Notes under the pieces: model-generated
Told to the model about the DNA's origin: nothing
Databases searched by the model: none
Seen by the model: the letters and a program-made list of their open reading frames with translations, nothing else
Part shown: positions 11,940 to 55,284 of the stretch, piece after piece
Numbering within the stretch: the first letter of the stretch is position 1
How the letters are laid out: every line of letters begins with the position of its first letter
Origin: an uncultured Alphaproteobacteria bacterium
Lineage (GTDB): Bacteria; Pseudomonadota; Alphaproteobacteria; HIMB59; GCA-002718135
Direction of reading: 5' to 3'
Length of the DNA: 64,000 nucleotides
Assembly: GCA_902567135.1 (NCBI GenBank)
Contig: CACFLO010000001.1
Coordinates: 49,748-113,747 of the forward strand
Program-made: the position numbers and the translations under genes

Positions 11940-12950
11940 CTAGCTCTTGGGTAAGGCACATCTTTCATCAATAATTTTTGCATTTTTTAATTCTTTCCAT
12001 AGGTCATTTGGAATTTTTATATTCAAATTAGATATATTATTATTAATTTGATCTTCTCTATCCATACCTATTACAAGAGAAGCGACCTGTTTATTAGCAT
12101 AACAAAACTGCAATGCTGCAGCTGGTACTGAAACATTATACCTATTACAAATGCTTAATATTTCATTATATTTTATCTTTATATTCTCTGGAATTTTATC
12201 ATAAAAATAAGTTATATTATCTCCAATACCCTTTGCAAGAATGCCAGAATTAAAAACCCCTCCAAGAATTATACCAATATTTTTTTCTTCAGCAATGGGT
12301 AGGCAGTCATCAAGCGCGCTTTGATCTAATAACGTATATCTACCTGCTAACAATATGCAGTCGAAATCACCTTCTTCTGCAAATCTTCTGCATATATCGG
12401 AATTATTTACACCTACACCAATTGCCTTAATAACTTTTTCTTCTTTTAATTTAGATATTGCCTTGTAAGCTCCTTTCATTGCAATTTTAAAATAATGATC
12501 TACTTGCTCTCCATACGTATAAGTATCAACGTCATGAATTAAACAGATATCAATTTTTGATGTATTCAATCTATGTAAAGATTGCTCAAAAGATTTCATT
12601 ACACCATCATATGAATAGTCTACATTTGGAATGAAGTTTAATCCACCTGCCCATTTTCCTCTATTTATTTTTTCTTCTTTTTGTGGTGTTAAGTATCTTC
12701 CAACTTTTGTAGATAAATAATAACTATCTAAATTTAATGTTTTTAGAAAACTCCCTAATCGATGTTCACTTAGTCCATTTCCATAATAAGGGGAAGTATC
12801 ATACAGATTTATATTAGAGTCATTGCAACGCGCTAGAGTTTTATAACAAGTTGCATCATCTAACTTTTCAAACAAATTTCCAATAGGTGCGCCACCAAAG
12901 CCCATTGATGATAAATATATATCAGTATTACCCAATTTTCTTTTTTGCAT
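11940..12950 (-). CDS. Aldo/keto reductase
   Basis: 336 aa. AKR pattern: GFGGAPIGN, DTSPYYGNG.SE..LG, STKVGR, and a LIHD tetrad context. Confidence 0.8.
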   Translation of the reverse strand: MQKRKLGNTDIYLSSMGFGGAPIGNLFEKLDDATCYKTLARCNDSNINLYDTSPYYGNGLSEHRLGSFLKTLNLDSYYLSTKVGRYLTPQKEEKINRGKWAGGLNFIPNVDYSYDGVMKSFEQSLHRLNTSKIDICLIHDVDTYTYGEQVDHYFKIAMKGAYKAISKLKEEKVIKAIGVGVNNSDICRRFAEEGDFDCILLAGRYTLLDQSALDDCLPIAEEKNIGIILGGVFNSGILAKGIGDNITYFYDKIPENIKIKYNEILSICNRYNVSVPAAALQFCYANKQVASLVIGMDREDQINNNISNLNIKIPNDLWKELKNAKIIDERCALPKS

Positions 12951-12978
12951 AATTGAATAATATTTTATACAGCAAAAA

Positions 12979-13548
12979 TTAGAGGTACGAAACTAAACCT
13001 ATTTCTTTTCTAAATCGATCTCTTATTGTAACAGCATTAAGAGGTATTGGTTTTATTGGCACATTTCCTGACTTAATTTTTGATATAATAACATAAGAAT
13101 TATTTTTATCAGCCAGAGCTTTTTGTAAATTTTCATTTGTTTCTTCACCTGAGCATTCAATTACATTTTTGCAACCAGATCCAATAGCAACATTCTTTAA
13201 AGATGTACTTTCATTGGTAAAAGTTTTTTGATCACCTGTTGATCCGTATGAGCCATTATCAACAATAAGAAGTGTATAATTAGATGGAGCTCTATTACCA
13301 ATTGTTGCAAGGGTGTTCATATTCATTAAAACTGATCCATCACCATCAATACTTATAACATTTTTATCAATGGATAATGATAAGCCTAAACCAATTGATG
13401 ATGCTAACCCCATACTACCCAACATATAAAAGTAATTTGGACGGTCATTAATTTTATATAATTCTTGTGAAGGCAAACCAATGTTGCAGATCACAAGTTC
13501 ATTTTCAATTGTTTGTTGCAAAAGATTTAATAATTCAAATCTATTCAT
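12979..13548 (-). CDS. comE: TPP-dependent decarboxylase beta subunit, sulfopyruvate decarboxylase (ComE)-like
   Basis: 189 aa with the TPP-binding motif IDGDGSVLMNMNTLATIGN...LLIVDNGSYGSTG. The split alpha/beta sizes (165 + 189 aa) fit ComD/ComE. A phosphonopyruvate decarboxylase alternative is not excluded. Confidence 0.6.
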   Translation of the reverse strand: MNRFELLNLLQQTIENELVICNIGLPSQELYKINDRPNYFYMLGSMGLASSIGLGLSLSIDKNVISIDGDGSVLMNMNTLATIGNRAPSNYTLLIVDNGSYGSTGDQKTFTNESTSLKNVAIGSGCKNVIECSGEETNENLQKALADKNNSYVIISKIKSGNVPIKPIPLNAVTIRDRFRKEIGLVSYL

Positions 13549-14046
13549 TTAATCATCCTCCATTAAATTAAAATTAAAAAGCACAGCTACAGGACTTTCA
13601 ATTACTTTGGCATGATTAGTAAAAGTTGAAATTTTATCTAAATCTTCTTCAATATTACAATGAAGCATTGGTATTCGAAGTGTGTTAAGAATATCTTCTG
13701 TGACACTTCCCATGCCGCCCTGAGCTCCCACAGGTTCCCCAGGAGTTCCTCGGTAGCTTATTAAGAAAACTACAGGTATTTGATATAATTGAAGAAGAGA
13801 AACTATAGAGTTTACTGAATTGCCAATACCAGTATTCTGCATCATAATACAAGGAAGTTTATTGCCAAGATAAGCTCCAGCGCAAATTCCCATTCCCTCT
13901 TCTTCTCTAGGAATAGCTGAATAATAAATTTCTTTATCATTCTCTAATATAGTGATCATATTAGCTAATAGTTTACATGGAACACTAAGAAAAAAATCAG
14001 CGCCGCCTGATTTTAAATTTGTTATAATCTTTTGGCTAATTTTCAT
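13549..14046 (-). CDS. comD: TPP-dependent decarboxylase alpha subunit, sulfopyruvate decarboxylase (ComD)-like
   Basis: 165 aa pyrimidine-binding domain with the catalytic Glu region PREEEGMGICAGAYLG. Directly abuts the beta subunit gene with no gap. Confidence 0.6.
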   Translation of the reverse strand: MKISQKIITNLKSGGADFFLSVPCKLLANMITILENDKEIYYSAIPREEEGMGICAGAYLGNKLPCIMMQNTGIGNSVNSIVSLLQLYQIPVVFLISYRGTPGEPVGAQGGMGSVTEDILNTLRIPMLHCNIEEDLDKISTFTNHAKVIESPVAVLFNFNLMEDD

Positions 14047-14095
14047 CGTTTTAATTTAATACTAAAATAAAATTATAAAACAAGATTTTGTTTTA

Positions 14096-15145
14096 TTAAA
14101 AATTGTTACGTAATTTAATCTTTATTTTAGATATATAATTGTTATTTTTTCTCAATATTGGAGAAGGAAAATTAGGATGATTAACCGCATCAGGATAATG
14201 TTGAGGCTCTAAACACATGCCATATTGAGGGCCGTATGACTTATTATACTTGCCAATATATTTATCCAACATCATATTGCCTGTATAAAACTGAATACCA
14301 TGTTGATTAGTAAAATATTCAACTCCCATTCCAGTTTTTTTACTATAAATCTTAGCGGCTGACTCTCTCATGGACTGATCTTTTAAAACATAGTTATGAT
14401 CAATTCCTCCAGAATTAAGAAATTCTTTACTTATTAAAAATTTATTCTTTAAATTAAATTTTGTATCTTCAATATTTATAATTTTACCAGTAGGGATAGA
14501 TTGTTCATCAGTCTCACATATCGAATTAGAATTAATATGTACAACATGATCTTCATTGTTTTGATAATGATCTCCGTGACCATGAAAATTCCAATAATTA
14601 TGGTTTGTAAGATTAACTAAAGTATCTTGATCTGAAATGGCTTGAAAATTTATCAAAATTTCGTTGTTATTATTTAATTCATAAATAACTTTACAATCTA
14701 GATTGCCTGGATAGTTTTCTTCCATATCGGGTGAAAGATAACTCATCACACATTTGATAGAATTTGATTTTTCCTCAATATTATCTATTTTCCATATTTT
14801 TTTATTAAAACCAACTTTACCTCCATGGAGATGATTTGGTGGAGTGTTCGGATATAATTGATAATAATTTTTATCTAAAGAGAACTTTGCAGATCCTATT
14901 CTATTTGCTACTCTTCCAATAATAGAATTAAAATAACCGTTTGACTCCAAAACGCCTTCGATATTACCATAGCCTAAAAGAACATCCTCAGTTTTATCTT
15001 CTTGATTCATCATAGGTATATTAACCTCATGAATGTATCCACCATAGGTATAAAATTTAAAGCTAAAATTATTATCGTTATGCACTTCAACTGACTCTAT
15101 ATTTAATTGAGATGGGTTATCTATTTTTTCTACTTTAACTTTCAT
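14096..15145 (-). CDS. Aldose 1-epimerase (mutarotase) family
   Basis: 349 aa with GRVANRI, NHLHGG..GF and LTNHNYWN, typical of GalM-type mutarotases. Confidence 0.75.
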   Translation of the reverse strand: MKVKVEKIDNPSQLNIESVEVHNDNNFSFKFYTYGGYIHEVNIPMMNQEDKTEDVLLGYGNIEGVLESNGYFNSIIGRVANRIGSAKFSLDKNYYQLYPNTPPNHLHGGKVGFNKKIWKIDNIEEKSNSIKCVMSYLSPDMEENYPGNLDCKVIYELNNNNEILINFQAISDQDTLVNLTNHNYWNFHGHGDHYQNNEDHVVHINSNSICETDEQSIPTGKIINIEDTKFNLKNKFLISKEFLNSGGIDHNYVLKDQSMRESAAKIYSKKTGMGVEYFTNQHGIQFYTGNMMLDKYIGKYNKSYGPQYGMCLEPQHYPDAVNHPNFPSPILRKNNNYISKIKIKLRNNF

Positions 15146-16050
15146 TACACTTTTCTATCTCTTGTTTTTGATAAATTATTTTGACGTAAATATATAATTA
15201 TACCTCCAGCAACTATAAATAAAGCACCTGGAAATAATTGATCTACTGGCCACTCTTTAAAGAAAATCCAACCCAAAATTAAAGCAAAAAATATTTCAAT
15301 ATAATCAAAGGGCATAATTTTACTAAGTTCTGCTTTTCTAGAACCATAAATTAATAATAAAACACCTGTTCCACCTGTAAAACCCATTAAAAACAATATA
15401 AACAAATCATATAAACTTTTGAAATTTTCCCACATATTAAATGTAATAACCAAAAGGATTGCACAGATTAAAGTGCCAATATTGGCGTAAAGATTTATTA
15501 ATGGCACGGGGGTATCATTTGAAAAATTTAAGGCTGTTATTCTTGCAAGAGAATAACCAAAAGCAGCCATTACAGGAAGTAACATATAAAAATTAAAGCT
15601 TTCAGACCAAGGTCGCATAATGAATATTATACCCACAAAACCTGTTAATACGGCTAATGTTTTATACCATCCAAATTTTTCACCAAGTAGTGGTATTGCT
15701 AATAATGTAACCATCATTGGTCCTGTGTACTCCATTGTTGCAACTAAAGCATAAGGTAAATAAAGATACGAGGTATATAAACATAGTTGAGCAAAAGACA
15801 TAATTAGGCCCCTTGCTAAACCAAAACGCCATCTTTTTATCACTAATTTTTTTCCACTAGCATGCCAGTCTTGTGAAAAATACAATGCAATAAAACAAGG
15901 TATCATTCCAAACAGATTTCTAAATACTGATAATTGAGCAGCTGGATAATCGTCTCTGAGGTATTTTATTGCAATACCCATACAGTCTAATAAAAATAAT
16001 CCAGATAAGGAAAGCGCAACTGCTATAAATAAATTACTTTTCACCCACAA
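15145..16050 (-). CDS. EamA/DMT-family permease
   Basis: 301 aa, about 10 TM segments. Stop/start overlaps with both neighbours. Confidence 0.7.
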   Translation of the reverse strand: MWVKSNLFIAVALSLSGLFLLDCMGIAIKYLRDDYPAAQLSVFRNLFGMIPCFIALYFSQDWHASGKKLVIKRWRFGLARGLIMSFAQLCLYTSYLYLPYALVATMEYTGPMMVTLLAIPLLGEKFGWYKTLAVLTGFVGIIFIMRPWSESFNFYMLLPVMAAFGYSLARITALNFSNDTPVPLINLYANIGTLICAILLVITFNMWENFKSLYDLFILFLMGFTGGTGVLLLIYGSRKAELSKIMPFDYIEIFFALILGWIFFKEWPVDQLFPGALFIVAGGIIIYLRQNNLSKTRDRKV

Positions 16051-17045
16051 CTAACGCCACATCGATCTACCCAATGATCTGGCTCAACTTCTTCTAATCC
16101 CATCTCAATATTTCCTTCCTTGCCATCTGGTGAAGCGTGAGGGCATCTTGTTCTAAAAACACATCCGGAAGGTGGGTTCATTGCACTAGGTATCTCTCCT
16201 TCAAGCTCAATAGCTTTTGATTTATTTTCAGGATCAATAGACGGAATAGAAGATAGTAATGCTTTTGTATAAGGATGTCTTGGATTTCTAAACAACTCTC
16301 TTGAAGGAGCCATCTCAACAATGTGACCAAGATACATTACAGCAACAATATCACAAACGTGAGCTACAACACTTAAATCATGGCTTATAAATAAATATGT
16401 TAAATTTAACTCATTTTGAAGTTGCTTTAAAAGATTTAATATATCAGCTTGAATTGAGACATCTAATGCAGCAACACTTTCATCCGCTACAATAAATTTT
16501 GGATTACTAACTAGTGCTCTTGCAATTGAAATACGTTGACGCTGACCCCCAGAAAAAGCATGTGGAAATCTTCTTAAGTGTTCAAGATTTAATCTACATT
16601 TGGCTGCAATATCTCGAACTCTCTCATCAGTTTCTTCTCTAGAATTTGTTATCTTCATAACTTCTAAAGGTTCTGCAATTATATCTCTAACAGTCATTCG
16701 AGGACTAAGTGCAGCGTATGGGTCTTGAAAGATAAGTTGTGCTTTTTTTCTATATTCTTTCATTTCCTTTGAATTAATGGTTGTTAAATCAAAATCTCTG
16801 TCATCATCATGAAAAATTACATTTCCAGTACTTATTTTATTTGCACCTAATATTGCTCTTCCAAGTGTAGTTTTTCCAGATCCAGATTCTCCAACAAGAC
16901 CAAAGAAAGATCCTTTTTTAATCTTAATGTTAATATTATTAACAGCTTTTATTTTTTGCTTCTTTGAAAGAAAATTCTCTTGGTAATCAAAAGATACCGA
17001 AAGATTGTTTACTGATACAATATTTTCACTCATGTTTTTCCACAA
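16041..17045 (-). CDS. Peptide/opine-type ABC transporter ATP-binding protein (OppF/DppF-like)
   Basis: Walker A GESGSGKT, signature FSGGQRQR, Walker B FIVADESVAALD. An ATG at 17033 forms an ATGA overlap with the upstream stop and is the likelier start. Cys-rich C-terminal tail. Confidence 0.85.
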   Translation of the reverse strand: MWKNMSENIVSVNNLSVSFDYQENFLSKKQKIKAVNNINIKIKKGSFFGLVGESGSGKTTLGRAILGANKISTGNVIFHDDDRDFDLTTINSKEMKEYRKKAQLIFQDPYAALSPRMTVRDIIAEPLEVMKITNSREETDERVRDIAAKCRLNLEHLRRFPHAFSGGQRQRISIARALVSNPKFIVADESVAALDVSIQADILNLLKQLQNELNLTYLFISHDLSVVAHVCDIVAVMYLGHIVEMAPSRELFRNPRHPYTKALLSSIPSIDPENKSKAIELEGEIPSAMNPPSGCVFRTRCPHASPDGKEGNIEMGLEEVEPDHWVDRCGVSCG

Positions 17046-18016
17046 TCAACACCACATTTATCTAACCAGTGACCTGGTTTAATCTCTACTAAACCCATCT
17101 CAATATTTTCTTCCTTACCTTCCTTTGATGCATGGGGACATCTTGTTCTAAAAACACATCCACTAGGTCTATCTAAAGGACTTGGAATATTGCCTGGAAT
17201 TGGGGTAAGTGCTGCATCTAAATTATTTATATCAGGAAGAGCATTTATTAACCCTTTTGTATAGGGATGCATTGGATTTTTTAAAATTTCATTTACCGGT
17301 CCTTGCTCTACAACACTGCCAAGATACATAACTGCAACATCATCTGCTACTTGAGCAATAACACCAAGATCATGAGTGATAAATATTACACCCATATTGT
17401 ATTCTTTAATAATATCTTTCATTAAATTTATTACCTGTGCTTGAATAGTTACATCTAACGCTGTTGTAGGCTCATCAGCTAACAATAGTTTAGGCATTGT
17501 TGATAAAGCCATAGCAATCATTGCGCGTTGCCTCATTCCTCCAGAGAGCTCAAAAGCATATTGATTAAATCGCTTTTCAGCATCTGCTATCCCTACCCTA
17601 TTTAACATATCTATTGATATATTTTTTGCTTCCTTTTTATCCATTGGTTTATGAATCATAAGTTGCTCAACCATTTGGTAACCAATTTTAATTGCTGGGG
17701 CAAAACTAGCCATTGGTTCTTGAAAAATCATTGAAACTTTTCCACCTCTAATTTTTTTTAAATCATTTTTTGATGTAAATTTTAAAACATTTTCGTCATC
17801 AATTATTATTTCTGCATTATCATTATATATTGTATTTCCTGGATTGAGTTGCATGATAGATTTTGCTGTAACGGATTTACCAGATCCTGACTCACCAACA
17901 ATACCTAAAACCTTTCCTTGATCCAATGTTAAAGAAACATTATCAATTGCTGTTATTCGACCTTCATCAGTATCAAACTTTACATCAAGATTATTTATTT
18001 CTAAAAGATGAGTCAT
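17030..18016 (-). CDS. Peptide/opine-type ABC transporter ATP-binding protein (OppD/DppD-like)
   Basis: Walker A GESGSGKS, signature LSGGMRQR, Walker B LLLADEPTTALD. The C-terminal tail is nearly identical to that of the next ATPase. Confidence 0.85.
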   Translation of the reverse strand: MTHLLEINNLDVKFDTDEGRITAIDNVSLTLDQGKVLGIVGESGSGKSVTAKSIMQLNPGNTIYNDNAEIIIDDENVLKFTSKNDLKKIRGGKVSMIFQEPMASFAPAIKIGYQMVEQLMIHKPMDKKEAKNISIDMLNRVGIADAEKRFNQYAFELSGGMRQRAMIAMALSTMPKLLLADEPTTALDVTIQAQVINLMKDIIKEYNMGVIFITHDLGVIAQVADDVAVMYLGSVVEQGPVNEILKNPMHPYTKGLINALPDINNLDAALTPIPGNIPSPLDRPSGCVFRTRCPHASKEGKEENIEMGLVEIKPGHWLDKCGVDCGKT

Positions 18017-18022
18017 AGAATA

Positions 18023-19186
18023 TTAATTTTTTGTTTTGTGTGGATCTGCAGCGTCTCGAAGACCATCTCCGACATACACAAATGTTAAAATTAAAACAAC
18101 TAAGAAAAAGACAGGTATAAAATACCATTGATAGTTTAGTAAAACATCTGCCTTTGTTGCATTTTGTAAAAGTACACCCAATGAATTTACAGGTTCTCTT
18201 AAACCTAAGCCTATAAAACTTAGAGCAGTTTCAGATAACAACATGTAAGGAAAGCTGATAACCAGATCAACAATTATGTAGCTTGTAAAACTTGGTAAAA
18301 GATGTCTGATAATTATATGGGTTGATGAAGCTCCACACATTTTAGCTGCAAGAATATATTCTTGACTTCTTTCACTTAATAAATGAGTTCGAACACGTCT
18401 TGCCAAAGTTGGCCAAGATATCAAACCTAATAAACAGGATATAAAGAAAAACCTGAGTTCTGAACTCCATTCAAGGGGTGCAAAAGCGGCAAGACACATA
18501 AATAAAGGTATGGGTGGAACTGTTCGAATAGCATCTGTAAACATTTGCAATAAACTATCAATCCAGCCGCCATAATATCCAGAGATACCTCCAATAATTA
18601 ATGACAAAACGAAAGAGATAAACACTCCCAGTGTTCCAACAGCTAATGAAATATATATTGCACTTAAGGTTCTACTAAATAAATCTTTTCCTGCTTTATC
18701 AGTTCCAAATAGATGAATTCCACCTTCCTCCACACCAAATAAATGCGTATCAAATGTTAGTCCTGGAATTGTAAAATCTAATGCCTTACCTGGAAGATTA
18801 ATACTATAATTAAAATATTTATATTCCCAACCTTTAACAAAAAAATAAACATAGCGTCTTTTTTCAGTATCTGTTTTATAAACCCATCTGAAATTTGTAT
18901 CAGCTCCTCTATACTTTGTTAGAGTATGTAAAAAAGGTCTAGGAGAAAAACCGTTTTCATCCCAAAACATTGGAATTTGTGGAGCACCGTTTTCATAATT
19001 TTTATCACGACCTGCAATTGTAGGATCATATGGAGATAAAAACCCAGAAAAAAGACTGCAAACTATCATAAATAACAAGATAGATCCTGCTATCATCGCT
19101 GAACGGTTTCCAAAGAAACGCGTTCTTACTAATTGCATTTGAGTAGCAGTATAGTACGCTTCTTTCTTTTTTATACTAACTTCCAC
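18023..19186 (-). CDS. ABC transporter permease (OppC/DppC-like)
   Basis: 387 aa with multiple TMs and the EAA-loop region ILAAKMCGASSTHIIIRHLLPSF. Long periplasmic loop after TM1. Confidence 0.8.
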   Translation of the reverse strand: MEVSIKKKEAYYTATQMQLVRTRFFGNRSAMIAGSILLFMIVCSLFSGFLSPYDPTIAGRDKNYENGAPQIPMFWDENGFSPRPFLHTLTKYRGADTNFRWVYKTDTEKRRYVYFFVKGWEYKYFNYSINLPGKALDFTIPGLTFDTHLFGVEEGGIHLFGTDKAGKDLFSRTLSAIYISLAVGTLGVFISFVLSLIIGGISGYYGGWIDSLLQMFTDAIRTVPPIPLFMCLAAFAPLEWSSELRFFFISCLLGLISWPTLARRVRTHLLSERSQEYILAAKMCGASSTHIIIRHLLPSFTSYIIVDLVISFPYMLLSETALSFIGLGLREPVNSLGVLLQNATKADVLLNYQWYFIPVFFLVVLILTFVYVGDGLRDAADPHKTKN

Positions 19187-20189
19187 CCATGACTCCTTTT
19201 CTAATTCTTGGATCCATTATTGCTAATAATATATCGGTGACAAAATTTACAAAAACGATTGTTGCAGTTAATAAAAATATAATTGCACCTGCTAATTGTT
19301 GATCATTAGATCTAGCTAGAGCCTCAATCAATAATGCACCAGCTTCAGTTAAGATTAAAATCAATGCAACCACTGGTAGTGCACTAAAAATTCTATTTAA
19401 ATCAAAACCGATCGAATTAATAACTGGTCCAAGTGAGTGCTTTGCTGGATAACGCCATAATAGACTCATACCTGATATCCCTCTAGCTCTTGCAGCCATA
19501 ACATAAAGTTTATCATTTTCATCTAACATTAATGCTCTAACGGTTTGAAGTGCAAAAGCAGTAGCATTCCATCCAAGAACAAAGATTGGTAACCAAGCTC
19601 TAGCAAGAAAATCTTTTAATTTATCAGCGGACCAAGGGGCATTTTCATATTCTTGAGAAAATAAACCTGTCATCGTATCTCCATAATACACTGTCATAAA
19701 AAGCATAATACAAAGTGCTACTAAAAAATTTGGTAAAGCTATTCCAAGATAGCTAATAAATTTCAGAGACTGATCTAAAGAGACATATTTTGTCGTGGCG
19801 GAAATAATACCAACTGGTATTGCTATTAAATACGAAAAAATTAAAGCTACTAAACATATAGTAAGTGAAAGCACAAACCTCCCACTAAGAAGATCATTAA
19901 TATTCATACGAAGAATACAACTATCTCCGAAATCTTGTTTAACTGCAATATCAGATACCCATTTTCCAAACCGATATAAAAAAGGCTTATCTAAACCAAG
20001 TCGCACTTTTTCTGCCTCAATATCCTCAAAGGTAATTTGCGAACCTTGAGTGTTTTTAAAAGCAAGATATCGTTCCGCACAAGTTCCTGGGACTAACTCC
20101 ATCAAAGAGAAAACAATAAAACAAACTATGAGTAATGTTACTATCGATAAAAATGCTCTAGTAATTGTAAACTGTATAAAATTAATCAT
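19176..20189 (-). CDS. ABC transporter permease (OppB/DppB-like)
   Basis: 337 aa with the EAA loop MAARARGISGMSLLWRYPAKHSLGPV. Confidence 0.8.
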   Translation of the reverse strand: MINFIQFTITRAFLSIVTLLIVCFIVFSLMELVPGTCAERYLAFKNTQGSQITFEDIEAEKVRLGLDKPFLYRFGKWVSDIAVKQDFGDSCILRMNINDLLSGRFVLSLTICLVALIFSYLIAIPVGIISATTKYVSLDQSLKFISYLGIALPNFLVALCIMLFMTVYYGDTMTGLFSQEYENAPWSADKLKDFLARAWLPIFVLGWNATAFALQTVRALMLDENDKLYVMAARARGISGMSLLWRYPAKHSLGPVINSIGFDLNRIFSALPVVALILILTEAGALLIEALARSNDQQLAGAIIFLLTATIVFVNFVTDILLAIMDPRIRKGVMGGS

Positions 20190-20225
20190 TATTTAATTTT
20201 TATTAATTGATATCCAAGACTAATT

Positions 20226-20262
20226 AGAAAAAATAAAAGCGGCAATAAAAAATTGCCGCTTT
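20226..20262 (-). terminator. Intra-operon stem-loop/terminator between the binding-protein gene and the permease genes
   Basis: 11-bp perfect stem aaagcggcaat (20236-20246) / attgccgcttt (20252-20262) with a 5-nt loop. On the minus strand it is followed by TATTTTTTC. Confidence 0.55.
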
Positions 20263-20284
20263 TTAAAGAATTTATTACTTTACC

Positions 20285-22345
20285 TTATTCGTCTAACCAC
20301 CACTGTGTAGCTAGATATGGATAAGTTCTGTAATACTCATAAGAAGTTGTTTTGAATTGCGTAAAGTTTTTCAAAGCATTTCTATGATATGTTGGGAATG
20401 GTGCTTTTACAGTACCAATTAACAAAGTTTGTTCTGTTAACATAGTAGTGATTTTTTCACCCCACTCATTAGATTCAGCTGTACCTAAAGCGTATGATTG
20501 GAATTTATCAATCCCATCGCTTAAGTCGTAAACCCATTGTGGAGGTTCTACACCGTCTGAGCCATTACTATCAATGTAAGCAGCCCATAACATACCTTGA
20601 GTATGATTGAAGTAGTTACCAAATGGTGCTTTAAATGTTTCAGGATTACCTGCGATAATAGCCAAAGGTTGGCCTTTATCCCAAGCGTGAACATCTAGAG
20701 CATTTGAAGATTGTGAACCACGATATTCATCTGGTGTAACTTCTTTAAAGTTTGTTTTAACACCAACATCATTCCACATACGTGCAACTAGTTCAACTTC
20801 AACACCACCAATACCTTGAGTTGCATAGTCAATGTTCATTGCAAAAGGAGATCCATTAGGAAGCTCTCTAAAGCCATCACCATCAACATCTTTTAATCCA
20901 ACTTCATCAAGTAAAGCGTTAGCTCCATCTGGATCATATTGAGTCATATGCATTTTGATTTCATCAGAAACAAAATCAGGTGCAGGTGAAATACCTACAA
21001 ACTGCTCTACAACACCCATTCCATAGTAAGCAACATCGTTGATTTCATTTCTATCAAGTGCAATTGACATTGCTTGACGGAAACGAATATCACCATAGAC
21101 TTTACGTTTTTCCATATCTGGATGAGTTACGTTAAAGCTAAATAGTGCAGCACCACAACCTGGGTTAATTTGAAGATTATACTCACCTGAGTCAGCACCA
21201 TCTAATAATTGAGGCGCAGATTCCAGTTGAACAGATTGAGATTTATAATCAACTTCACCATTAACTAGTTTTAACAATCTAATCTCATTTTCATTGATGT
21301 ATCTTTCATTTTGATAATCAATGTATGGTAATTGATTTCCAGCAGTATCAACTTGATGGAAATATGGATTAGCTGCGTACACTCTTCCCTCAGTAGTATC
21401 TTCAATAGTCATATAAGCTTCTAATGAAGGATAAGCTGCGTACACTAAGCCACTAACTAGATCAGGGTTTCTCAACATAGGAGTTGGAGTATCAGTCCAA
21501 CCTGAGTTACCATAATAAGCAGCAAGAGCATCCCAACCATCTGCAAAACCTAAAGCTTGTGCATTTGCATCAGCATTAGAGTCTATTTCAGGATGAAATT
21601 GTTCTAAGAAATGTGCAGGCATAAAAAATTGATTGTATGACCATGCAATAGTTGCTGTTAAACCAGGGAAAGGTGATGGTAAGTTAAATCTAGCTGTTAC
21701 ATCATCAATAACATCAACAGTCATTGGTTCACCACCAACAAGAAGATAAGGGTATGGTTTTTCTCTAATGTTAGTATTCATCATTAGATCTTCATACCAA
21801 AATTCTATATCTCTAGCAGTAAATGGTTCTCCGTTAGACCACTTATGTCCTTTTCTCAGTGTAAAAGTTAAAGTTGTGAAATCATCATTCCACTCAAAAC
21901 TTTTCGCAACATTTGGTACAATAGTTGTTAAGTCATCAGCAAATCTTAATAAGTTTACGTGACGAGTTGATAACATATCTGAAGTACCAGCTTCAGTTGC
22001 ATTTGATAAGAAATTAATTGTACCACCGTACTTACCGATTGAATCATAAGGTCTAACAACTAGCGGCTCTTCAGGAAGTCTATCTCCAACTGGAGGTAAA
22101 GCTTTATTACCCTGAATACTTGCATTAATACTTGCAATATTTGGGTTTTCCTTAAATTGCATTTCGCAACCTGCTAATTGTTCAAACTCATCTAATTCGT
22201 ACTGTTGAGTATACTGTCCAGCATCAACACCATTTGGATTACTTTGAGTTGAACCATTACCTGCGCAAGCACCAGCAAAAGAATAACTACTCCATGATAT
22301 TGAAGCTAAAGAAAATACAACAGCTAAAATTAATTTTTTAAACAT
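20285..22345 (-). CDS. ABC transporter substrate-binding protein, family 5 (peptide/nickel/opine type), unusually long
   Basis: 686 aa. Signal peptide MFKKLILAVVFSLASISWSSYSFA. Strong SD (aaagaggagaaataat) before the ATG. Family-5-like core. Confidence 0.8.
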   Translation of the reverse strand: MFKKLILAVVFSLASISWSSYSFAGACAGNGSTQSNPNGVDAGQYTQQYELDEFEQLAGCEMQFKENPNIASINASIQGNKALPPVGDRLPEEPLVVRPYDSIGKYGGTINFLSNATEAGTSDMLSTRHVNLLRFADDLTTIVPNVAKSFEWNDDFTTLTFTLRKGHKWSNGEPFTARDIEFWYEDLMMNTNIREKPYPYLLVGGEPMTVDVIDDVTARFNLPSPFPGLTATIAWSYNQFFMPAHFLEQFHPEIDSNADANAQALGFADGWDALAAYYGNSGWTDTPTPMLRNPDLVSGLVYAAYPSLEAYMTIEDTTEGRVYAANPYFHQVDTAGNQLPYIDYQNERYINENEIRLLKLVNGEVDYKSQSVQLESAPQLLDGADSGEYNLQINPGCGAALFSFNVTHPDMEKRKVYGDIRFRQAMSIALDRNEINDVAYYGMGVVEQFVGISPAPDFVSDEIKMHMTQYDPDGANALLDEVGLKDVDGDGFRELPNGSPFAMNIDYATQGIGGVEVELVARMWNDVGVKTNFKEVTPDEYRGSQSSNALDVHAWDKGQPLAIIAGNPETFKAPFGNYFNHTQGMLWAAYIDSNGSDGVEPPQWVYDLSDGIDKFQSYALGTAESNEWGEKITTMLTEQTLLIGTVKAPFPTYHRNALKNFTQFKTTSYEYYRTYPYLATQWWLDE

Positions 22346-22433
22346 ATTATTTCTCCTCTTTAAATTTAAAGTAATGATGAAGTCATTACATATATAAGCT
22401 TAAAATACAAAAAAAATTTGACAGGTTTATTAC

Positions 22434-22462
22434 ATTTATTTTGTAAAAATTTGAATTGGCAA
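22434..22462 (-). promoter_or_regulatory. Candidate sigma-70-type promoter for the ABC operon
   Basis: Minus strand TTGCCA-17 nt-ATAAAT about 90 nt upstream of the binding-protein ATG. Consensus match by eye only. Confidence 0.25.
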
Positions 22463-23371
22463 TTAAAGCCAAACTGGGTTTGTCCAAGCAAAATCGCCAG
22501 AATCATTAGCAATACTGACCCTAAACCACTCTGATGGATACTTTTTTAGGTCAAATTCAGCCTTTGTAATATTTTTCCCATTCTGACTCATGGATTTAGC
22601 TCCTTGACCAACAACACACACTTGATTTGAAGGGGAGCACTGGATATTTACTTGATAGCTATTAATTTCAAACTCGAAAATTTCAACTCCTGTAGAAGAA
22701 TAATATTGTCCATTTTTTAATGCATTTAAAATTGAGCTTTCTGATAATTTATCTGCAGCAACCATCACCCATCCACCTCCACAATCTTGCATTTTAAAAT
22801 GAGAGTCATCAGTAGCAGTTAAAAATATTCTATTATTTTCTTGTAATAAATAGTCTGCTGCTGCAGTACCAAAACCACGTTGAGCTTCTATATGGCATGA
22901 ATGATTATAAATTTCAATACCATGTGCATGACTTAAAGAAAGACATTCATCAAATGTTAGAGAATACCATTCTGGATGAGCTATTGTAACAAACGCACCT
23001 GCTTCAATTGCTCTTTGAACTAAATGAGTTGCTGTTTCTTTTTCATCAGCACATTTAAAATCTAACGGTAAACCATTTGCAACAATATGCCAAAGTCCAT
23101 CTTTAACATATTTTTTACCTAGGCAATGAAGTTCTGCTGATGGAATGGTTATAAAGTCTTTTTGATTAAGATGTTTTGTTTCTAATACTGTTTCAGCTGC
23201 AAAGTTAGTATCTTTCCACAAATGATCTGAAAGGCATGTAAAATCATAACCTATTTCCTTATACTTATTAACAACTTCTTGTGGATTTAAAGCTCCATCT
23301 GAATGATTTGAATGTCCATGCAAATTACCTTTAAAGTACTTATGTTTATTTTTTGAAGGTAATAAATGCAT
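22463..23371 (-). CDS. PHP-domain metal-dependent phosphoesterase
   Basis: 302 aa with the N-terminal PHP motif GNLHGHSNHSDG and later His/Asp clusters (LSDH, IAHPEW, TDDSH). Confidence 0.7.
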   Translation of the reverse strand: MHLLPSKNKHKYFKGNLHGHSNHSDGALNPQEVVNKYKEIGYDFTCLSDHLWKDTNFAAETVLETKHLNQKDFITIPSAELHCLGKKYVKDGLWHIVANGLPLDFKCADEKETATHLVQRAIEAGAFVTIAHPEWYSLTFDECLSLSHAHGIEIYNHSCHIEAQRGFGTAAADYLLQENNRIFLTATDDSHFKMQDCGGGWVMVAADKLSESSILNALKNGQYYSSTGVEIFEFEINSYQVNIQCSPSNQVCVVGQGAKSMSQNGKNITKAEFDLKKYPSEWFRVSIANDSGDFAWTNPVWL

Positions 23372-29172: not shown

Positions 29173-30084
29173 ATGCTACAATCAAAAGAATCTCAAATTC
29201 CTAATAATTTAATATCATTGGCTAAAAAAACGCCTAATCTTTCAGCAGGAATCATTTGTGCTAATCATGACTCCTCAATGGAATCAGCTAAAAAATCAGT
29301 TGAGTTAAATCTTATAAACCCAATTTTTATTGGCAACAAACAAGAGATCAATGAAAAGGCTGAAAAAATTGAATGGGATATAAATGCTTATGAAATAATT
29401 AATTCTTCTAATGATGTAGAGGCTGCAATTATTGGGGCAGAACTTGGAAGAGATAATAAAATAAAAGTAATGATTAAAGGCAATCTTCATACAGATGTTT
29501 TAATGAGAGCCTACTTAAAAAAAGAATTTGGTCTTATTGAAGGAAAAAGATTAAGCCATATTTGGCATATGACAATTTTAAAAGATGATAAACCACTTTT
29601 TATAACTGATGGAGCTTTAAATGTTGCGCCTCGTATTGATGTCAAAATGCATATACTTAAAAATGTTATTGAATTTGCAAACCAAATCGATATTGCAAAA
29701 CCAAGAGTAGCTATCTTATCAGGCACAGAAGATCCAATTGAAAGTATGCCAAGTTCTGTAGAGGCAAAAGAGTTAATGGAACGTGCAAAAAATGAAAATA
29801 TTAATGCTTATGTTCATGGACCTTTAGCTTTTGATAATGCTATTTCTCCAGAAGCTGCTGCAATTAAAAATATTTCTAATGAAGTCGCTGGAAAAGCTGA
29901 TATTCTTTTGGTTCCGAATTTAGAAACGGGTAACGCTTTATCAAAAATCATGGTTTACTTTATGGGAGCTTGCGCTGCTGGTTTTATTGTTGGCGGTAAA
30001 GTTCCTGTTGTTGTAACAAGTAGAGCAGATAGTTCTGCATCACGAATAGCATCTATCGCAGCTTCCGTTATAGCTGCGCAATAG
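29173..30084 (+). CDS. pta: Phosphate acetyl/butyryl-transferase family protein (short Pta)
   Basis: 303 aa with VMIKGNLHTD, TDGALNVAP and LVPNLETGNALSK, typical of the PTA_PTB fold. Confidence 0.7.
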   Translation: MLQSKESQIPNNLISLAKKTPNLSAGIICANHDSSMESAKKSVELNLINPIFIGNKQEINEKAEKIEWDINAYEIINSSNDVEAAIIGAELGRDNKIKVMIKGNLHTDVLMRAYLKKEFGLIEGKRLSHIWHMTILKDDKPLFITDGALNVAPRIDVKMHILKNVIEFANQIDIAKPRVAILSGTEDPIESMPSSVEAKELMERAKNENINAYVHGPLAFDNAISPEAAAIKNISNEVAGKADILLVPNLETGNALSKIMVYFMGACAAGFIVGGKVPVVVTSRADSSASRIASIAASVIAAQ

Positions 30085-36538: not shown

Positions 36539-36550
36539 AAAATTAACAAT

Positions 36551-37681: not shown

Positions 37682-37694
37682 TGTTTATCTATCC

Positions 37695-38666: not shown

Positions 38667-38670
38667 TAAA

Positions 38671-39642: not shown

Positions 39643-39661
39643 TTTAAGAAAAATTATATTT

Positions 39662-39699
39662 TATTCATTTTTAATGAATAATATTCAAAATATTGAATA
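39662..39699. promoter_or_regulatory. Cluster of four alternating TATTCA/TGAATA half-sites (candidate tandem operators) in a divergent promoter region
   Basis: TATTCA (39662-39667), TGAATA (39675-39680), TATTCA (39682-39687), TGAATA (39694-39699). The central TGAATA-A-TATTCA is a perfect 13-bp palindrome and shares a 14-mer with 35504-35517. Confidence 0.35.
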
Positions 39700-39750
39700 A
39701 ATCAATTTAATATTTTGTCTAAATTGTGAGTAACTGAAATATAAAGAATT

Positions 39751-40842: not shown

Positions 40843-40903
40843 CAGATTTAATAGATACTATCAGTTAATTATATATACAAAGTAAATTAATTAAGAGAAA
40901 AAA

Positions 40904-42190
40904 ATGACTATTTCATATATCAAAAAAGCAGATAAAACAGCCTCTTCAGATGAAGCAGAAACTCGTAAAAGAGTTCAAGATGTATTAAATGAAATTGAAT
41001 CAAGAAGAGATGAGGGTATAAAAGATATATCTCGTAAATTTGATAATTATGAAGGTGATGTAATTGTTTCTGAAGAAAAAATTGAAGAAGTTATTAAGTC
41101 TCTCGATCAAAAGGTAAAAGATGATGTTCAATTTTCTTATGACAGAGTAAGAAGTTTTGCTGAGCATCAATTAAAACACCTGAATAATGATTTTGAAGTC
41201 GAATTATCACCAGGATTGTTTGCAGGCCAAAAACTGATTCCTGTTAATAGTGTTGGTTGTTATGTTCCTGGTGGTCGTTATAATAATATTGCATCAGCAG
41301 TAATGAGTATTACAACAGCAAAAGTTGCTGGTGTAAAAAATGTTATTGCGGCAAGTCCTCCGAAAGATGAAAATGGGGCTAACCCAATAATTATTTACAC
41401 GGCAAATTTATGTGGTGCTGATGTTATTATGAATATTGGCGGTATTGGAGCAATAGGTGCTTTTGCTTATGGCTGTTTTGGTAATCCTGAAGTTGATATG
41501 ATTGTTGGCCCAGGCAATCAGTATGTTGCTGAAGCAAAAAGAATTTTATACGGGAAAGTAGGAATTGATTTATTTGCAGGACCAACTGAGATAGGAATTA
41601 TAGCTGATCGCACAGCAGATAAAGAAATGATTGCTGTTGATTTAGTAGGACAAGCAGAGCATGGACCGAACTCCCCTGCTTGGCTATATTCCACTGATCA
41701 AAAATTATGTGACTATGTTATTCAAAGAGTACCTGAATTAATTGCTGCACTTCCTGAAACGTCAAGAAATAATGCTGGAGCAGCATGGCGAGATTACGGA
41801 GAAGTTATTCTATGTGATACGAATGAAGAGTTATGTGAGATTAGTGATCAATATGCACCTGAACATTTAGAAGTACAAGCAGAAAATTTGAATTGGTGGC
41901 TTGAAAAATTAAAAAACTATGGATCTTTATTTTTAGGTGAAGAGACAACTGTTGCTTACGGAGATAAATGCTCAGGTACTAATCATATTCTTCCAACAAA
42001 AGGGGCAGCAAAATATACGGGCGGTTTATTTGTTGGTAAGTTTATTAAAACAGTTACTTTCCAGCGTATGTCAAAAGAATCAAATAAAGAAGTTGGTGCA
42101 GCAGCTGCTAGAATTTCTCGGTTAGAAGGAATGGAAGCACACGCTAGAACAGGAGATGCTCGTTTACGAAAATACGGATTTCAAAACTAA
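40904..42190 (+). CDS. Histidinol-dehydrogenase-family NAD-dependent dehydrogenase (candidate sulfopropanediol 3-dehydrogenase, HpsN-like)
   Basis: 428 aa with an intact HisD catalytic set: GQAEHGP (Gln/His Zn ligands), APEHLEV, GDKCSGTNHILPT, MEAHARTG. There is no his-operon context, and the sulfonate neighbourhood suggests an HpsN-like role (inference). Confidence 0.75.
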   Translation: MTISYIKKADKTASSDEAETRKRVQDVLNEIESRRDEGIKDISRKFDNYEGDVIVSEEKIEEVIKSLDQKVKDDVQFSYDRVRSFAEHQLKHLNNDFEVELSPGLFAGQKLIPVNSVGCYVPGGRYNNIASAVMSITTAKVAGVKNVIAASPPKDENGANPIIIYTANLCGADVIMNIGGIGAIGAFAYGCFGNPEVDMIVGPGNQYVAEAKRILYGKVGIDLFAGPTEIGIIADRTADKEMIAVDLVGQAEHGPNSPAWLYSTDQKLCDYVIQRVPELIAALPETSRNNAGAAWRDYGEVILCDTNEELCEISDQYAPEHLEVQAENLNWWLEKLKNYGSLFLGEETTVAYGDKCSGTNHILPTKGAAKYTGGLFVGKFIKTVTFQRMSKESNKEVGAAAARISRLEGMEAHARTGDARLRKYGFQN

Positions 42191-53508: not shown

Positions 53509-55284
53509 TTATTGAACGACAGTATCCTGACTATTAATGCCCGCTACTTCAACTGGTGCTTTCATTGCATCTCTCCTAAATGGCTCACCAAGTTCTTGAT
53601 TTAGAATGACTTCGATAAAAGTTGTAATACCATTCATTTGATCAACACATGATGCTTTAAGAGCTTCTGTTAACTCTGATTGAGTTGTAACTTTAACACC
53701 TTTAAAGCCGCATGCTTCTGCAATTTTTGCATAACTTAATTTTGGATCAAGTTCTGTTCCAATAAAGTTGTTATCGTACCAAAGGGTGGTATTTCTTTTC
53801 TCTGCTCCCCATTGATAATTTCGAAATATAACCATTGTAATATTTGGCCACTCTTCTCGACTACATGAAGTCATCTCACTCATACTAATTCCAAAAGCAC
53901 CATCGCCAGAAAAACCTACAACTGGTGTATTAGGACAACCAATTTTTGCACCTAAAACAGATGGAAAACCATAACCGCATGGTCCAAATAAACCTGGAGC
54001 TAAGTATTTTCTTCCTTTTTCAAAAGTAGGATAAGCATTACCAATTGCACAGTTATTACCAATATCACTTGAAATTATAGCATCATCGGGTAAGCCTGCT
54101 TGAATAGCTCTCCAAGCCATACGTGGTGACATTCTATCAGGATCTCTCTCCCTTGAATCTTTATTCCATGTTGTGCCTTCATCATCTTCTTCATGATCTA
54201 AACTTGTTAGTGTTTGAAGCCATGCTGATTTAGTCTGATGTATTAATGCTTTTCTATCTTCTCTTCCACTATCTCCTGCAGTTGAAGATAATTGACTTAG
54301 AATTTGTTGAGCAACAAGCTTAGCATCACCACAAATTCCTACTGATATTTTTTTTGCTAAACCAATTCTATCAGAGTTAAAATCAACTTGAATTATTTTT
54401 GCCTCTTTTGGCCAGTAATCAATTCCATAACCAGGTAGTGTTGAAAAAGGATTTAATCTTGTTCCAAGTGCTAGTACTACATCGGCCTTGGAAATAATTT
54501 CCATTGCTGCTTTAGATCCGTTGTATCCAAGTGGGCCAATCGCAAGTGGATGTTTTCCTGGAAAACTATCGTTGTGTTGATATCCACAAGCTACAGGAGC
54601 ATCTAATTTTTCAGCAATTTTTTTACAATCTCCAATAGCATCAGCAAGAACTACACCTGCTCCAGATAATATTACTGGAAATTTTGCATTTGATAAAAGT
54701 TTTGCAGCCTCAGTAATTGCTGCAGCTCCTCCAGATGGTCTTTCAAATTCAATAATAGAGGGTAATTCAATATCAACAACCTGGGTCCAGAAATCTCGTG
54801 GAACATTTATTTGCGCTGGGGCTGATCCTCTTTTAGCTTTTAATATTACTCTATTTAACACTTCTGCCATTCTAGACGCATCACGAACTTCTTCTTGATA
54901 ACACACCATATCTTTAAATAAATTCATTTGCTCTACTTCTTGAAAACCACCTTGACCCATTGTTTTATTTGCTGCTTGAGGAGTAACTAAAAGCATCGGT
55001 GTGTGATTCCAATAAGCTGTTTTTATTGGTGTTACTAATCCAGTTATACCTGGTCCATTTTGTGCAATACACATAGCAATTTTACCAGTTGATCTTGTAT
55101 AGCCATCTGCGATTAAACCACCATTTGACTCATGTGCTACATCCCAAAAAGTAATACCAGCTTTTGGAAAAAGATCTGAAATTGGCATAAAAGCTGATCC
55201 TATTATTCCAAAAGAATGTTGTATTCCATGCATTTGTAAAACTTTTACAAAAGCTTCCTCAGTAGTCATTTTAGCCATCTTCAC
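53509..55284 (-). CDS. xsc: Sulfoacetaldehyde acetyltransferase (TPP enzyme)
   Basis: 591 aa. N-terminus TTEEAFVKVLQMHGIQHSFGIIGSAFMPISDLFPKAGITFWD..AQNGPGITG..AYWNHTPMLLVTPQA and TPP motif GDGAFGISMSEM, as I remember them for Xsc. Context includes pta and the aminotransferase. Confidence 0.8.
   Translation of the reverse strand: MKMAKMTTEEAFVKVLQMHGIQHSFGIIGSAFMPISDLFPKAGITFWDVAHESNGGLIADGYTRSTGKIAMCIAQNGPGITGLVTPIKTAYWNHTPMLLVTPQAANKTMGQGGFQEVEQMNLFKDMVCYQEEVRDASRMAEVLNRVILKAKRGSAPAQINVPRDFWTQVVDIELPSIIEFERPSGGAAAITEAAKLLSNAKFPVILSGAGVVLADAIGDCKKIAEKLDAPVACGYQHNDSFPGKHPLAIGPLGYNGSKAAMEIISKADVVLALGTRLNPFSTLPGYGIDYWPKEAKIIQVDFNSDRIGLAKKISVGICGDAKLVAQQILSQLSSTAGDSGREDRKALIHQTKSAWLQTLTSLDHEEDDEGTTWNKDSRERDPDRMSPRMAWRAIQAGLPDDAIISSDIGNNCAIGNAYPTFEKGRKYLAPGLFGPCGYGFPSVLGAKIGCPNTPVVGFSGDGAFGISMSEMTSCSREEWPNITMVIFRNYQWGAEKRNTTLWYDNNFIGTELDPKLSYAKIAEACGFKGVKVTTQSELTEALKASCVDQMNGITTFIEVILNQELGEPFRRDAMKAPVEVAGINSQDTVVQ

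Follow-up and report, generated by a model that had tools for sequence, protein, structure and literature searches.

A putative sulfopyruvate decarboxylase gene string in an uncultured HIMB59 bacterium is probably a modular, trimmed island

Introduction

Some of the largest flows of organic sulfur in the ocean run through sulfoquinovose and the C3 compounds formed from it, and C3 sulfonates are degraded through the split sulfopyruvate decarboxylase ComDE and the sulfoacetaldehyde acetyltransferase Xsc in the sulfolactate/2,3-dihydroxypropanesulfonate (DHPS) route of Roseovarius nubinhibens. That route has been summarised elsewhere (bioRxiv 10.1101/2024.12.10.627767), and a tandem sulfofucolytic and sulfolactate sulfolyase pathway with an ATP-binding cassette (ABC) importer and an optional aldose 1-epimerase has been described in Paracoccus wurundjeri (PMC12421959). 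In the reviews searched, bacteria of the Pelagibacter type figure only as secondary users of short sulfonates (PMC13436972), a paper on the AEGEAN-169/HIMB59 group does not mention sulfonates (PMC10308909), and our literature search turned up none that connects ComDE with sugar genes of SAR11 or HIMB59. Here we describe such a linkage in a 64,000-nucleotide stretch (the window) of an uncultured alphaproteobacterium of the order HIMB59 (assembly GCA_902567135.1, contig CACFLO010000001.1, positions 49,748 to 113,747), where eleven minus-strand genes run from a PHP-domain hydrolase through an Opp/Dpp-type ABC importer, a drug/metabolite transporter (DMT) permease and a mutarotase to comD, comE and an aldo-keto reductase (AKR).

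The first-pass annotation of this stretch read the string as one new route, in which a conjugate or sugar-like sulfonate, perhaps derived from sulfoquinovose, would be imported and turned into sulfopyruvate and then sulfoacetaldehyde, bypassing kinase and aldolase. Comparison with related genomes points elsewhere: we consider it fairly probable that the string is a modular, trimmed sulfosugar or carbohydrate island, in which ComDE would feed Xsc from C3 sulfonates and the importer would carry a sugar-type cargo.

Results

A full island in most of the genus

All eleven reading frames are present and belong to the families first described (Table 1), as assigned from Pfam and NCBIfam profiles; solved relatives were taken from a sequence search of the Protein Data Bank (PDB). 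The assembly of this genome (G000) spans 1.19 Mb at ~30% G+C and is 66.8% complete. In the genome collection used, the order comprises 186 species in 9 genera, members of the genus reach 1.5–1.6 Mb and one closed genome of the sister family measures 1.4 Mb; we compared 103 genus genomes and 71 sister-family genomes, with 35 comE loci and ten 16–20-kb genus loci (G and L numbers are genome and locus labels within the collection). With its wealth of sugar genes, the lineage matches what has been published on AEGEAN-169/HIMB59, or SAR11 subclade V (PMC10308909), more closely than Pelagibacterales proper, and probably belongs to that group. Substrates and co-transcription are throughout predictions from gene identity, context and synteny.

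In all ten of the 16–20-kb genus loci that reach far enough, the binding-protein gene, oppBCDF, the DMT permease gene, the mutarotase gene and comDE follow one another in this order, with the DMT gene always adjoining the mutarotase gene. Three slots vary around this backbone: one upstream of the binding-protein gene, one between oppF and the DMT gene, where many loci carry two Gfo/Idh/MocA genes, and one downstream of comE. In the last of these, about 27 of the 35 comE loci have a PfkB kinase and a 2-hydroxyacid dehydrogenase (2HADH), one (G519) has the dehydrogenase alone, three have the AKR (G000, G011 and G445), and in three more an agmatinase-like gene follows directly (G001, G446 and G484). 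The top solved match of the relatives' kinase is sulfofructose kinase YihV (7AG6, E-value 7.6e-42; the next match has 1e-25), and the protein is 33.6% identical to E. coli YihV, keeping K27 and R138 of the K27-N109-R138 sulfonate triad as well as the SSQS and AGDVFHG motifs. The next genes in relatives encode a Gfo-type dehydrogenase and a 455-aa protein whose only NCBIfam match is the sulfoquinovose isomerase model for SftI (NF048012, 293.7 bits over the full length); the PDB sequence search gave no match for it. The gene for this SftI-like protein occurs in 67 of 103 genus genomes, among them all six with a completeness of at least 90%. Wherever both coordinates are listed, it is within a few kb of comE.

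The island can be much longer. In G467, G248 and G440 about 30 kb separate comE from the agmatinase-like gene, and this stretch carries CUT1- and RbsB-type sugar transporters, a glycoside hydrolase of family GH31, a short-chain dehydrogenase/reductase (SDR), a mannitol-dehydrogenase-family enzyme, an Ldh_2 enzyme and UxuA, and further an AKR, an enolase-superfamily dehydratase, a GH29 fucosidase and an aldolase of the 2-keto-3-deoxy-6-phosphogluconate (KDPG) type. The island GH31 is closest to alpha-glucosidases and was not used in support of sulfoquinovose. The GH31 proteins of G519 (L182:11372-13786) and G467 (L177:4882-7263) are 47% identical to each other, and one of the two genes lies directly upstream of comD. 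No sulfofructose-1-phosphate aldolase (YihT or SqiA) was identified in the string or in the relatives' island; class II and DeoC-family genes occur elsewhere in every genome searched and are not diagnostic.

Little of this was found in the genome under study. The SftI-like isomerase was not found in the six trimmed genomes (G000, G011, G445, G446, G001 and G484), neither of the two PfkB paralogues of G000 has the YihV sulfonate triad, and tblastn of the whole G000 assembly returned no orthologue of the kinase, the isomerase, GH31, the sulfatase, UxuA, the enolase-type dehydratase (MR_MLE), GH29 or the KDPG-type aldolase (Eda). It is true, as first noted, that the eleven genes include no glycosidase, kinase, aldolase or sulfolactate dehydrogenase, but the idea of a new route that does without kinase and aldolase finds no support, since the enzymes are present in relatives and were probably deleted here. 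Sulfoquinovose as the guessed substrate fits the apparent ancestry of the island, with a YihV-like kinase and an SftI-like isomerase after ComE in most members of the genus. Another contig of G000 carries a PfkB-family gene and, after it, a class II aldolase-family gene of only ~280 aa (G000:C17:137-2720); this kinase is without the YihV triad. Two arginase-fold genes flank the region, at 10990-11928 and 25597-26574, the former an agmatinase by its score (TIGR01230, 190 bits against a cut-off of 174) and, in all relatives, a conserved marker of the flexible island's right-hand boundary.

ComDE and Xsc

The abutting comD and comE genes encode the pyrimidine- and pyrophosphate-binding halves of a thiamine pyrophosphate (TPP) enzyme. 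ComD scores 157.3 bits with its own model (TIGR03845, cut-off 147.95) and ComE 221.6 bits (TIGR03846, cut-off 221.5), whereas the phosphonopyruvate decarboxylase (Ppd) model TIGR03297, with a cut-off of 312.5, gives only 100.8 and 128.3 bits, respectively. The GDG...N motif of ComE is intact, with G69, D70, (G71), D97 and N98 invariant or nearly so across 18 homologues, and the protein is 45–49% identical to ComE of Methanobacterium, Methanobrevibacter and Methanolobus. The phosphoenolpyruvate (PEP) mutase family (PF13714) was not found in G000, incomplete as it is, or in five relatives that are 91–96% complete, and was found in 11 of 14 control genomes. The initial assignment of the split enzyme to the ComDE type rather than to phosphonopyruvate decarboxylases is borne out by these scores and by the missing mutase.

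In a maximum-likelihood tree of 83 ComE-like sequences, as had been proposed for placing the TPP subunits, the window's ComE falls in a clade with support of 100/99 together with marine proteobacterial ComE from HpsN and tripartite ATP-independent periplasmic (TRAP) transporter contexts. Among the members of this clade that are not close kin, L037 brings together a TRAP transporter, a HisD/HpsN-like dehydrogenase, ComDE, an SDR and a zinc-dependent alcohol dehydrogenase (Zn-ADH), an enzyme complement known from DHPS catabolism (PMC11131964); L033 has a class-III aminotransferase and a TRAP transporter with ComDE; and L034 has ComDE beside a cluster of LacI, MetE-like, bicupin, SnoaL and HisD-like genes, a HisD-like gene being near ComDE in L035 as well. 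For the nearest ComE representative that is not close kin (P0125), the contig of 1.3 kb shows no gene context. A fused homologue (P0126) stands beside a PALP enzyme, an aldehyde dehydrogenase and a gene resembling 3'-phosphoadenosine-5'-phosphosulfate reductase, a setting that fits sulfonate chemistry in this single case.

Within the genus 85 of 103 genomes have ComE, against none of the 71 sister-family genomes. The Xsc gene of the window is genuine (TIGR03457, 941.5 bits against a cut-off of 676.4) and has counterparts in all five relatives that are at least 91% complete, which upholds the earlier view of Xsc as a plausible sink for the ComDE product. Sulfopyruvate decarboxylation feeding Xsc is the best-supported function that can be predicted for ComDE.

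The importer and its cargo

The Opp/Dpp (PepT-family) set is complete, with a family-5 binding protein, two BPD_transp_1 permeases and two oligo_HPY ATPases, and the oppB product is 90–98% identical in relatives within the genus. Between the binding-protein gene and oppB, the terminator-like hairpin probably acts through partial termination or mRNA stabilisation and leaves the binding protein in excess; a hairpin after the binding-protein gene is the usual arrangement by which ABC importer operons over-produce this component.

At 686 aa, with a signal peptide of ~25 N-terminal residues, the binding protein had been singled out as roughly 150 aa longer than typical family-5 proteins. It is indeed long beside DppA and OppA but of ordinary length within its own branch, the long, sugar-binding family-5 proteins, where solved relatives have 609–683 residues and orthologous reading frames in other Alphaproteobacteria mostly have ~675–730 aa. 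Among solved structures it best matches T. maritima 5IPW (633 aa) and the Sphingomonas pectin-oligosaccharide binder SPH1118 (609–619 aa; 7VEQ/7VER), together with the alpha-galactoside binder AgpA of S. meliloti (6EPY, 683 aa) and a chitin-oligosaccharide binder of Vibrio (1ZTY). SPH1118 was itself annotated as a peptide binder and showed essentially no binding of yeast extract or tryptone peptide mixtures in thermal-shift assays (PMC9314435). The closest solved relatives are thus binders of oligosaccharides, and the initial premise, that sugar enzymes do not belong with ABC systems of the peptide type, does not hold. The importer, an Opp/Dpp-type system, probably carries a sugar-type cargo.

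That cargo is probably not a polyanion of the SPH1118 kind. Arg57, Arg294, Arg438, Arg466 and Arg496 of SPH1118 align with Leu (Leu125), Gln, Gly (Gly511), Pro (Pro538) and Glu (Glu569) of the window's protein, while Asp483 is kept as Asp556 and Trp594 is replaced by another aromatic residue, Tyr669; at ~31% identity the loop positions of this alignment are uncertain. We accordingly discarded an SPH1118-like anion pocket, and with the pocket arginines not conserved nothing in the sequence points to an oligogalacturonide or other polyanionic ligand.

Orthologues of the binding protein (43–60% identical) occur in seven other alphaproteobacterial genomes, always with OppBCDF, and near these seven importers no ComDE, mutarotase, kinase, isomerase, glycoside hydrolase or sulfonate enzyme was found. 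Their contexts are mixed, with gamma-glutamyltranspeptidase, histidine kinases, a sodium/phosphate cotransporter and MocR-type regulators, and sulfatases in three of the seven. Conversely, G519, which belongs to a neighbouring genus and is 91% complete, has ComDE, 2HADH and a Gfo-type gene behind two CUT1 transporters and a GH31, and contains no orthologue of the window's binding protein and no YihV-like kinase. Because the importer occurs without ComDE elsewhere and ComDE without the importer in G519, the modules appear to have been inherited separately. Synteny, proposed earlier as a check, thus shows a constant backbone of importer, DMT permease, mutarotase and ComDE within the genus but not outside it, and a functional tie between importer and ComDE finds no support, as the two occur apart in other lineages.

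The remaining genes of the string

The AKR has L-galactose dehydrogenases as its best solved relatives and adjoins ComE in only 3 of the 35 loci (those named above). It is 67% identical to the AKR of G467 and G248, which stands beside the enolase-superfamily dehydratase, the GH29 fucosidase and the KDPG-type aldolase; in G467 this counterpart is 28 kb away, in a fucose-type module. The AKR is thus hard to keep as a member of the pathway that had been proposed. It is probably what remains of the island's far end rather than a partner of ComDE, and its adjacency to comE is best explained by loss or replacement of intervening DNA.

At the other end of the string, the PHP hydrolase scores 86.7 bits with NF038032 (cut-off 80) and matches the PHP family weakly; it has an HxH motif and no signal peptide, which places it in the cytoplasm. 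Its PDB search gave no sequence relative and an Atlas search only the family name. The slot is variable, filled by the PHP hydrolase in L018 and L019 or by a divergent PehA-like sulfatase in L013, L143 and L176 (L013:2174-3709, L143:17100-18635 and L176:2386-3921). Sulfatases unrelated to these (32–35% identity) lie near the orthologous importers of three other alphaproteobacterial genomes (L137, L140 and L142). Their recurrence hints, as a lead only, at a sulfate-ester cargo for this transporter family. The mutarotase has human galactose mutarotase (GALM, 1SNZ) as its best solved relative and gave no BLAST match with E. coli YihR.

The junctions within the string are as first reported: a 10-nt overlap of OppF and DMT genes, a common base (15145) of DMT and mutarotase genes, abutting comD and comE, and largest gaps of 95 and 117 nt. 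Such junctions say little about function, since overlaps and tiny gaps are usual throughout this genome. Of the window's 64 genes 41 lie on the minus strand; coding density is 95%, the median gap is 11 nt overall and 6 nt between neighbours on the same strand, and a longest same-strand run of at least eleven genes arose in 10.1% of 100,000 strand shuffles. Co-direction and tight spacing of the string hardly exceed the genome background and are weak evidence for a functional link. A promoter scan found sites rarer than in shuffled sequence and was given no weight.

Table 1. Features of the eleven-gene string and of genes in the window with a predicted link to ComDE
Feature	Coordinates	Strand	Family or model
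PHP-domain metallohydrolase (CehA/McbA family)	22463..23371	-	NF038032 + weak PHP match
Family-5 (cluster C) substrate-binding protein, 686 aa, periplasmic	20285..22345	-	SBP_bac_5
Terminator-like hairpin in the 95-nt gap between binding-protein gene and oppB	20235..20263	-	12-bp stem then T-run
OppB/DppB-type permease	19176..20189	-	BPD_transp_1 + BPD_transp_1_N
OppC/DppC-type permease, 387 aa, enlarged N-terminal part	18023..19186	-	OppC_N + BPD_transp_1
OppD-type ATPase	17030..18016	-	ABC_tran + oligo_HPY
OppF-type ATPase	16041..17045	-	ABC_tran + oligo_HPY
DMT/EamA permease	15145..16050	-	EamA
GalM-type aldose 1-epimerase (mutarotase)	14096..15145	-	Aldose_epim, 234 bits
ComD, sulfopyruvate decarboxylase alpha subunit, 165 aa	13549..14046	-	TIGR03845; TPP_enzyme_N
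ComE, sulfopyruvate decarboxylase beta subunit (TPP-binding), 189 aa	12979..13548	-	TIGR03846; TPP_enzyme_C
AKR, aldose 1-dehydrogenase kind	11940..12950	-	Aldo_ket_red
Xsc, sulfoacetaldehyde acetyltransferase	53509..55284	-	TIGR03457
Short Pta-like phosphotransacylase, candidate acetyl phosphate converter after Xsc (inferred)	29173..30084	+	PTA_PTB
HisD/HpsN-like dehydrogenase, candidate C3-sulfonate supplier to ComDE (inferred)	40904..42190	+	Histidinol_dh

Candidate suppliers of C3 sulfonates

Homologues of the HisD/HpsN-like dehydrogenase of the window, 50–59% identical to it, are found ~1–9 kb from ComDE in L034, L035 and L037. In the alphaproteobacterial metagenome-assembled genome (MAG) L034, the counterpart (L034:7335-14152) of the window's entire LacI, MetE-like, bicupin, tandem-SnoaL and HisD-like cluster (35537-42190) lies beside ComDE; in the SAR116 MAG L035 the HisD-like gene is ~8 kb away; and in L037 it (L037:3099-4391) is immediately upstream of ComD, behind a fused TRAP permease. 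These contexts suggest that the cluster at 35537-42190 may degrade a sulfonate that ends as sulfopyruvate.

Other candidates were set aside. The only Ldh_2 (ComC-family) gene of G000 scores far under the cut-off for a sulfolactate dehydrogenase and has hydroxyproline dehydratase-like and SoxB-family neighbours, a hydroxyproline/sarcosine context, and 1357-2592, tried as a cysteate aminotransferase, is 5-aminolevulinate synthase (TIGR01821, 568 bits against 338.55). A complementary distribution of SuyB-type lyase and ComDE was dropped as uninformative, the PF04295 search having found ~500-aa full-length UxaA/GarD-like genes in the ComDE genus. Next to an alanine dehydrogenase gene, the class-III aminotransferase at 27700-29040 scores 583.7 with the AptA omega-aminotransferase model (cut-off 500), and since this cut-off is passed its assignment as taurine:pyruvate aminotransferase is insecure.

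Discussion

In the model favoured here, the string combines four modules. The PHP hydrolase would go with the Opp/Dpp-type importer, whose long binding protein would capture a sugar-type ligand in the periplasm; the DMT permease would be coupled to the GalM-type mutarotase; ComDE would convert sulfopyruvate to sulfoacetaldehyde, from which Xsc would make acetyl phosphate and sulfite, the acetyl phosphate being taken on by the Pta-like enzyme; and the aldose-1-dehydrogenase-like AKR would adjoin comE only because the DNA standing between the two in fuller islands was lost or replaced. In most of the genus, the full island may lead from sulfoquinovose to sulfolactate, sulfopyruvate and Xsc, and in this genome ComDE would most likely serve C3 sulfonates arriving by other routes (DHPS, cysteinolate, sulfolactate or cysteate), for example through the HisD/HpsN-like dehydrogenase. 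On balance, the evidence favours modules that were inherited separately, that may be co-transcribed and that do not make up one pathway.

Several observations weigh against this reconstruction. ComE exceeds its NCBIfam cut-off by just 0.1 bit, and the presence of ComDE among sugar genes in two genera could mean a sugar-derived substrate rather than an independently imported C3 sulfonate. In the relatives' kinase, N109 of the YihV triad is replaced by Ala; the score of the SftI-like protein is far under the family cut-off of 700; and neither a sulfofructose-1-phosphate aldolase nor a sulfolactaldehyde dehydrogenase was identified in the relatives' island. In the island GH31 (G467 and G519) only the Arg of the R301-W304-Y508 triad of sulfoquinovosidases is retained, with Phe in place of both W304 and Y508, which weakens the already tentative sulfoquinovose reading of the full island. 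With 66.8% of the genome assembled, the missing genes may exist outside the assembly, although certainly not at this locus. Finally, importer, DMT permease, mutarotase and ComDE have stayed together after trimming in several species, as a functional unit would.

This last point also counts for reading the string as a single pathway, in which a sulfonated sugar or conjugate would be imported and the mutarotase, the AKR and further partners would yield sulfopyruvate without kinase or aldolase, leaving ComDE and Xsc to finish. Both of these enzymes are genuine, the backbone is intact in several trimmed genomes, the relatives' islands look related to sulfoquinovose use, and the pocket of SPH1118 bound the sulfonate buffer 2-(N-morpholino)ethanesulfonic acid (MES). 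We nevertheless regard such a pathway as unlikely: no enzymes for cleaving the carbon chain were found, the AKR is rarely next to ComE and has its counterpart in a fucose-type module, orthologues of the importer are found apart from ComDE and ComDE apart from the importer, the arginines with which SPH1118 binds anions are not kept, and the co-direction and spacing are those of the genome at large. The chance is likewise small that the retained core (importer, DMT permease, mutarotase, ComDE and optionally the AKR) functions as a unit that imports and processes an unrecognised marine sulfonated or sulfated glycoside, delivering sulfopyruvate to ComDE and Xsc without sulfofructose kinase or aldolase. 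An oxidative variant resembling the sulfo-Entner-Doudoroff pathway would have the mutarotase and AKR of the trimmed genomes act as sulfosugar mutarotase and 1-dehydrogenase, with a lactonase, a dehydratase and an HpcH-type aldolase encoded elsewhere giving sulfolactaldehyde and then sulfolactate for ComDE and Xsc. The likeness of the AKR to aldose 1-dehydrogenases, HpcH/HpaI-family aldolase genes on other contigs of G000 and the tandem sulfosugar and sulfolactate pathways of Paracoccus (PMC12421959) speak for this variant; it is decidedly improbable given that L-fucose or L-galactose is suggested by the place of the AKR homologue in fuller islands, next to an enolase-superfamily dehydratase and a GH29 fucosidase, that no dedicated lactonase or dehydratase is linked to the AKR here, and that three other trimmed genomes have no AKR beside ComE.

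Two further alternatives concern the decarboxylase itself. It is conceivable that the ComDE-like enzyme acts on a sugar-derived 2-oxo acid, for example hydroxypyruvate or a 2-keto-aldonate made by the 2HADH and Gfo-type dehydrogenases of the relatives, as ComE barely reaches its family cut-off, two genera have ComDE amid sugar genes and no gene downstream of it is more constant than the 2HADH. Yet both subunits do pass the ComD and ComE cut-offs, the identity to methanogen ComE is substantial (45–49%), the sister clade is found in HpsN-like, TRAP and aminotransferase contexts, the kinase and isomerase that adjoin ComDE in relatives are of sulfosugar type, and Xsc is present in all the more complete relatives, so that this substrate seems a doubtful one. 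That ComDE is a phosphonopyruvate decarboxylase of phosphonate synthesis is very improbable indeed: TIGR03297 is the second-best NCBIfam model and the best solved relative, 9IZ3, is annotated as a putative phosphonopyruvate decarboxylase beta subunit, but the scores of 128 and 101 bits are far from the cut-off, and the PEP mutase family is missing from G000 and the five more complete relatives while most controls were positive.

Most of the genus carries a sulfoquinovose-type island wired to ComDE and Xsc, which would allow full mineralisation in a single streamlined cell. To this the window adds a natural deletion series, in which importer, mutarotase and ComDE are kept and kinase, isomerase and dehydrogenase lost. 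The series indicates that the modules are separable, and neither comDE nor this Opp-type importer should be scored as sulfoquinovose use when met in metagenomes; nor should gene strings in genomes with 95% coding density be read as functional links at the level of an operon. Were the retained core a working unit after all, abundant open-ocean bacteria would possess a kinase- and aldolase-free route for a sulfonated or sulfated glycoside.

Among known systems, the sulfoglycolytic Embden-Meyerhof-Parnas (sulfo-EMP) route of E. coli (yihQRSTUV) and the SftI-type clusters are approached most closely by the relatives, in which genes for a YihV-like kinase and an SftI-like isomerase come directly after comDE and a mutarotase is present as well. 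The window differs in that no core isomerase, kinase, aldolase or sulfoquinovosidase was found in it, nor any GH31 in G000, and that its mutarotase looks GalM- rather than YihR-type; the end product would pass to ComDE and Xsc for mineralisation and would not leave the cell as DHPS, and even the relatives' GH31 is without two of the three sulfoquinovosidase signature residues. With Paracoccus wurundjeri (PMC12421959) the comparison lies in the pairing of sulfosugar cleavage with complete C3-sulfonate mineralisation in one organism, but the Paracoccus pathway is oxidative (dehydrogenase, lactonase, dehydratase and aldolase) and ends in SuyAB, whereas the end here would be ComDE and Xsc and the cleavage enzymes are missing from the window.

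The single parts have relatives of their own. The AKR resembles the AKR-type aldose 1-dehydrogenases (the plant L-galactose and the bacterial L-fucose and D-threo-aldose dehydrogenases), since L-galactose dehydrogenases are its best solved relatives, but it stands alone, without dehydratase, fucosidase or aldolase. The importer shares with the Opp/Dpp sugar importers (SPH1118, 5IPW, 6EPY and 1ZTY), which are annotated as peptide transporters and yet bind sugars, a long binding protein (~610–690 aa) with an extra domain and the OppBCDF-type parts, at only ~30–37% identity and with the SPH1118 arginines not kept. As for the C3-sulfonate route, the window's ComDE sits between a mutarotase and an AKR and not by a sulfolactate dehydrogenase or a sulfonate transporter; common to both are a split ComD and ComE, with Xsc and a Pta-like gene from the same genome region, the HpsN-like dehydrogenase that the window encodes, and a sister clade whose ComDE is found in clusters with TRAP, HisD-like, SDR and Zn-ADH genes.

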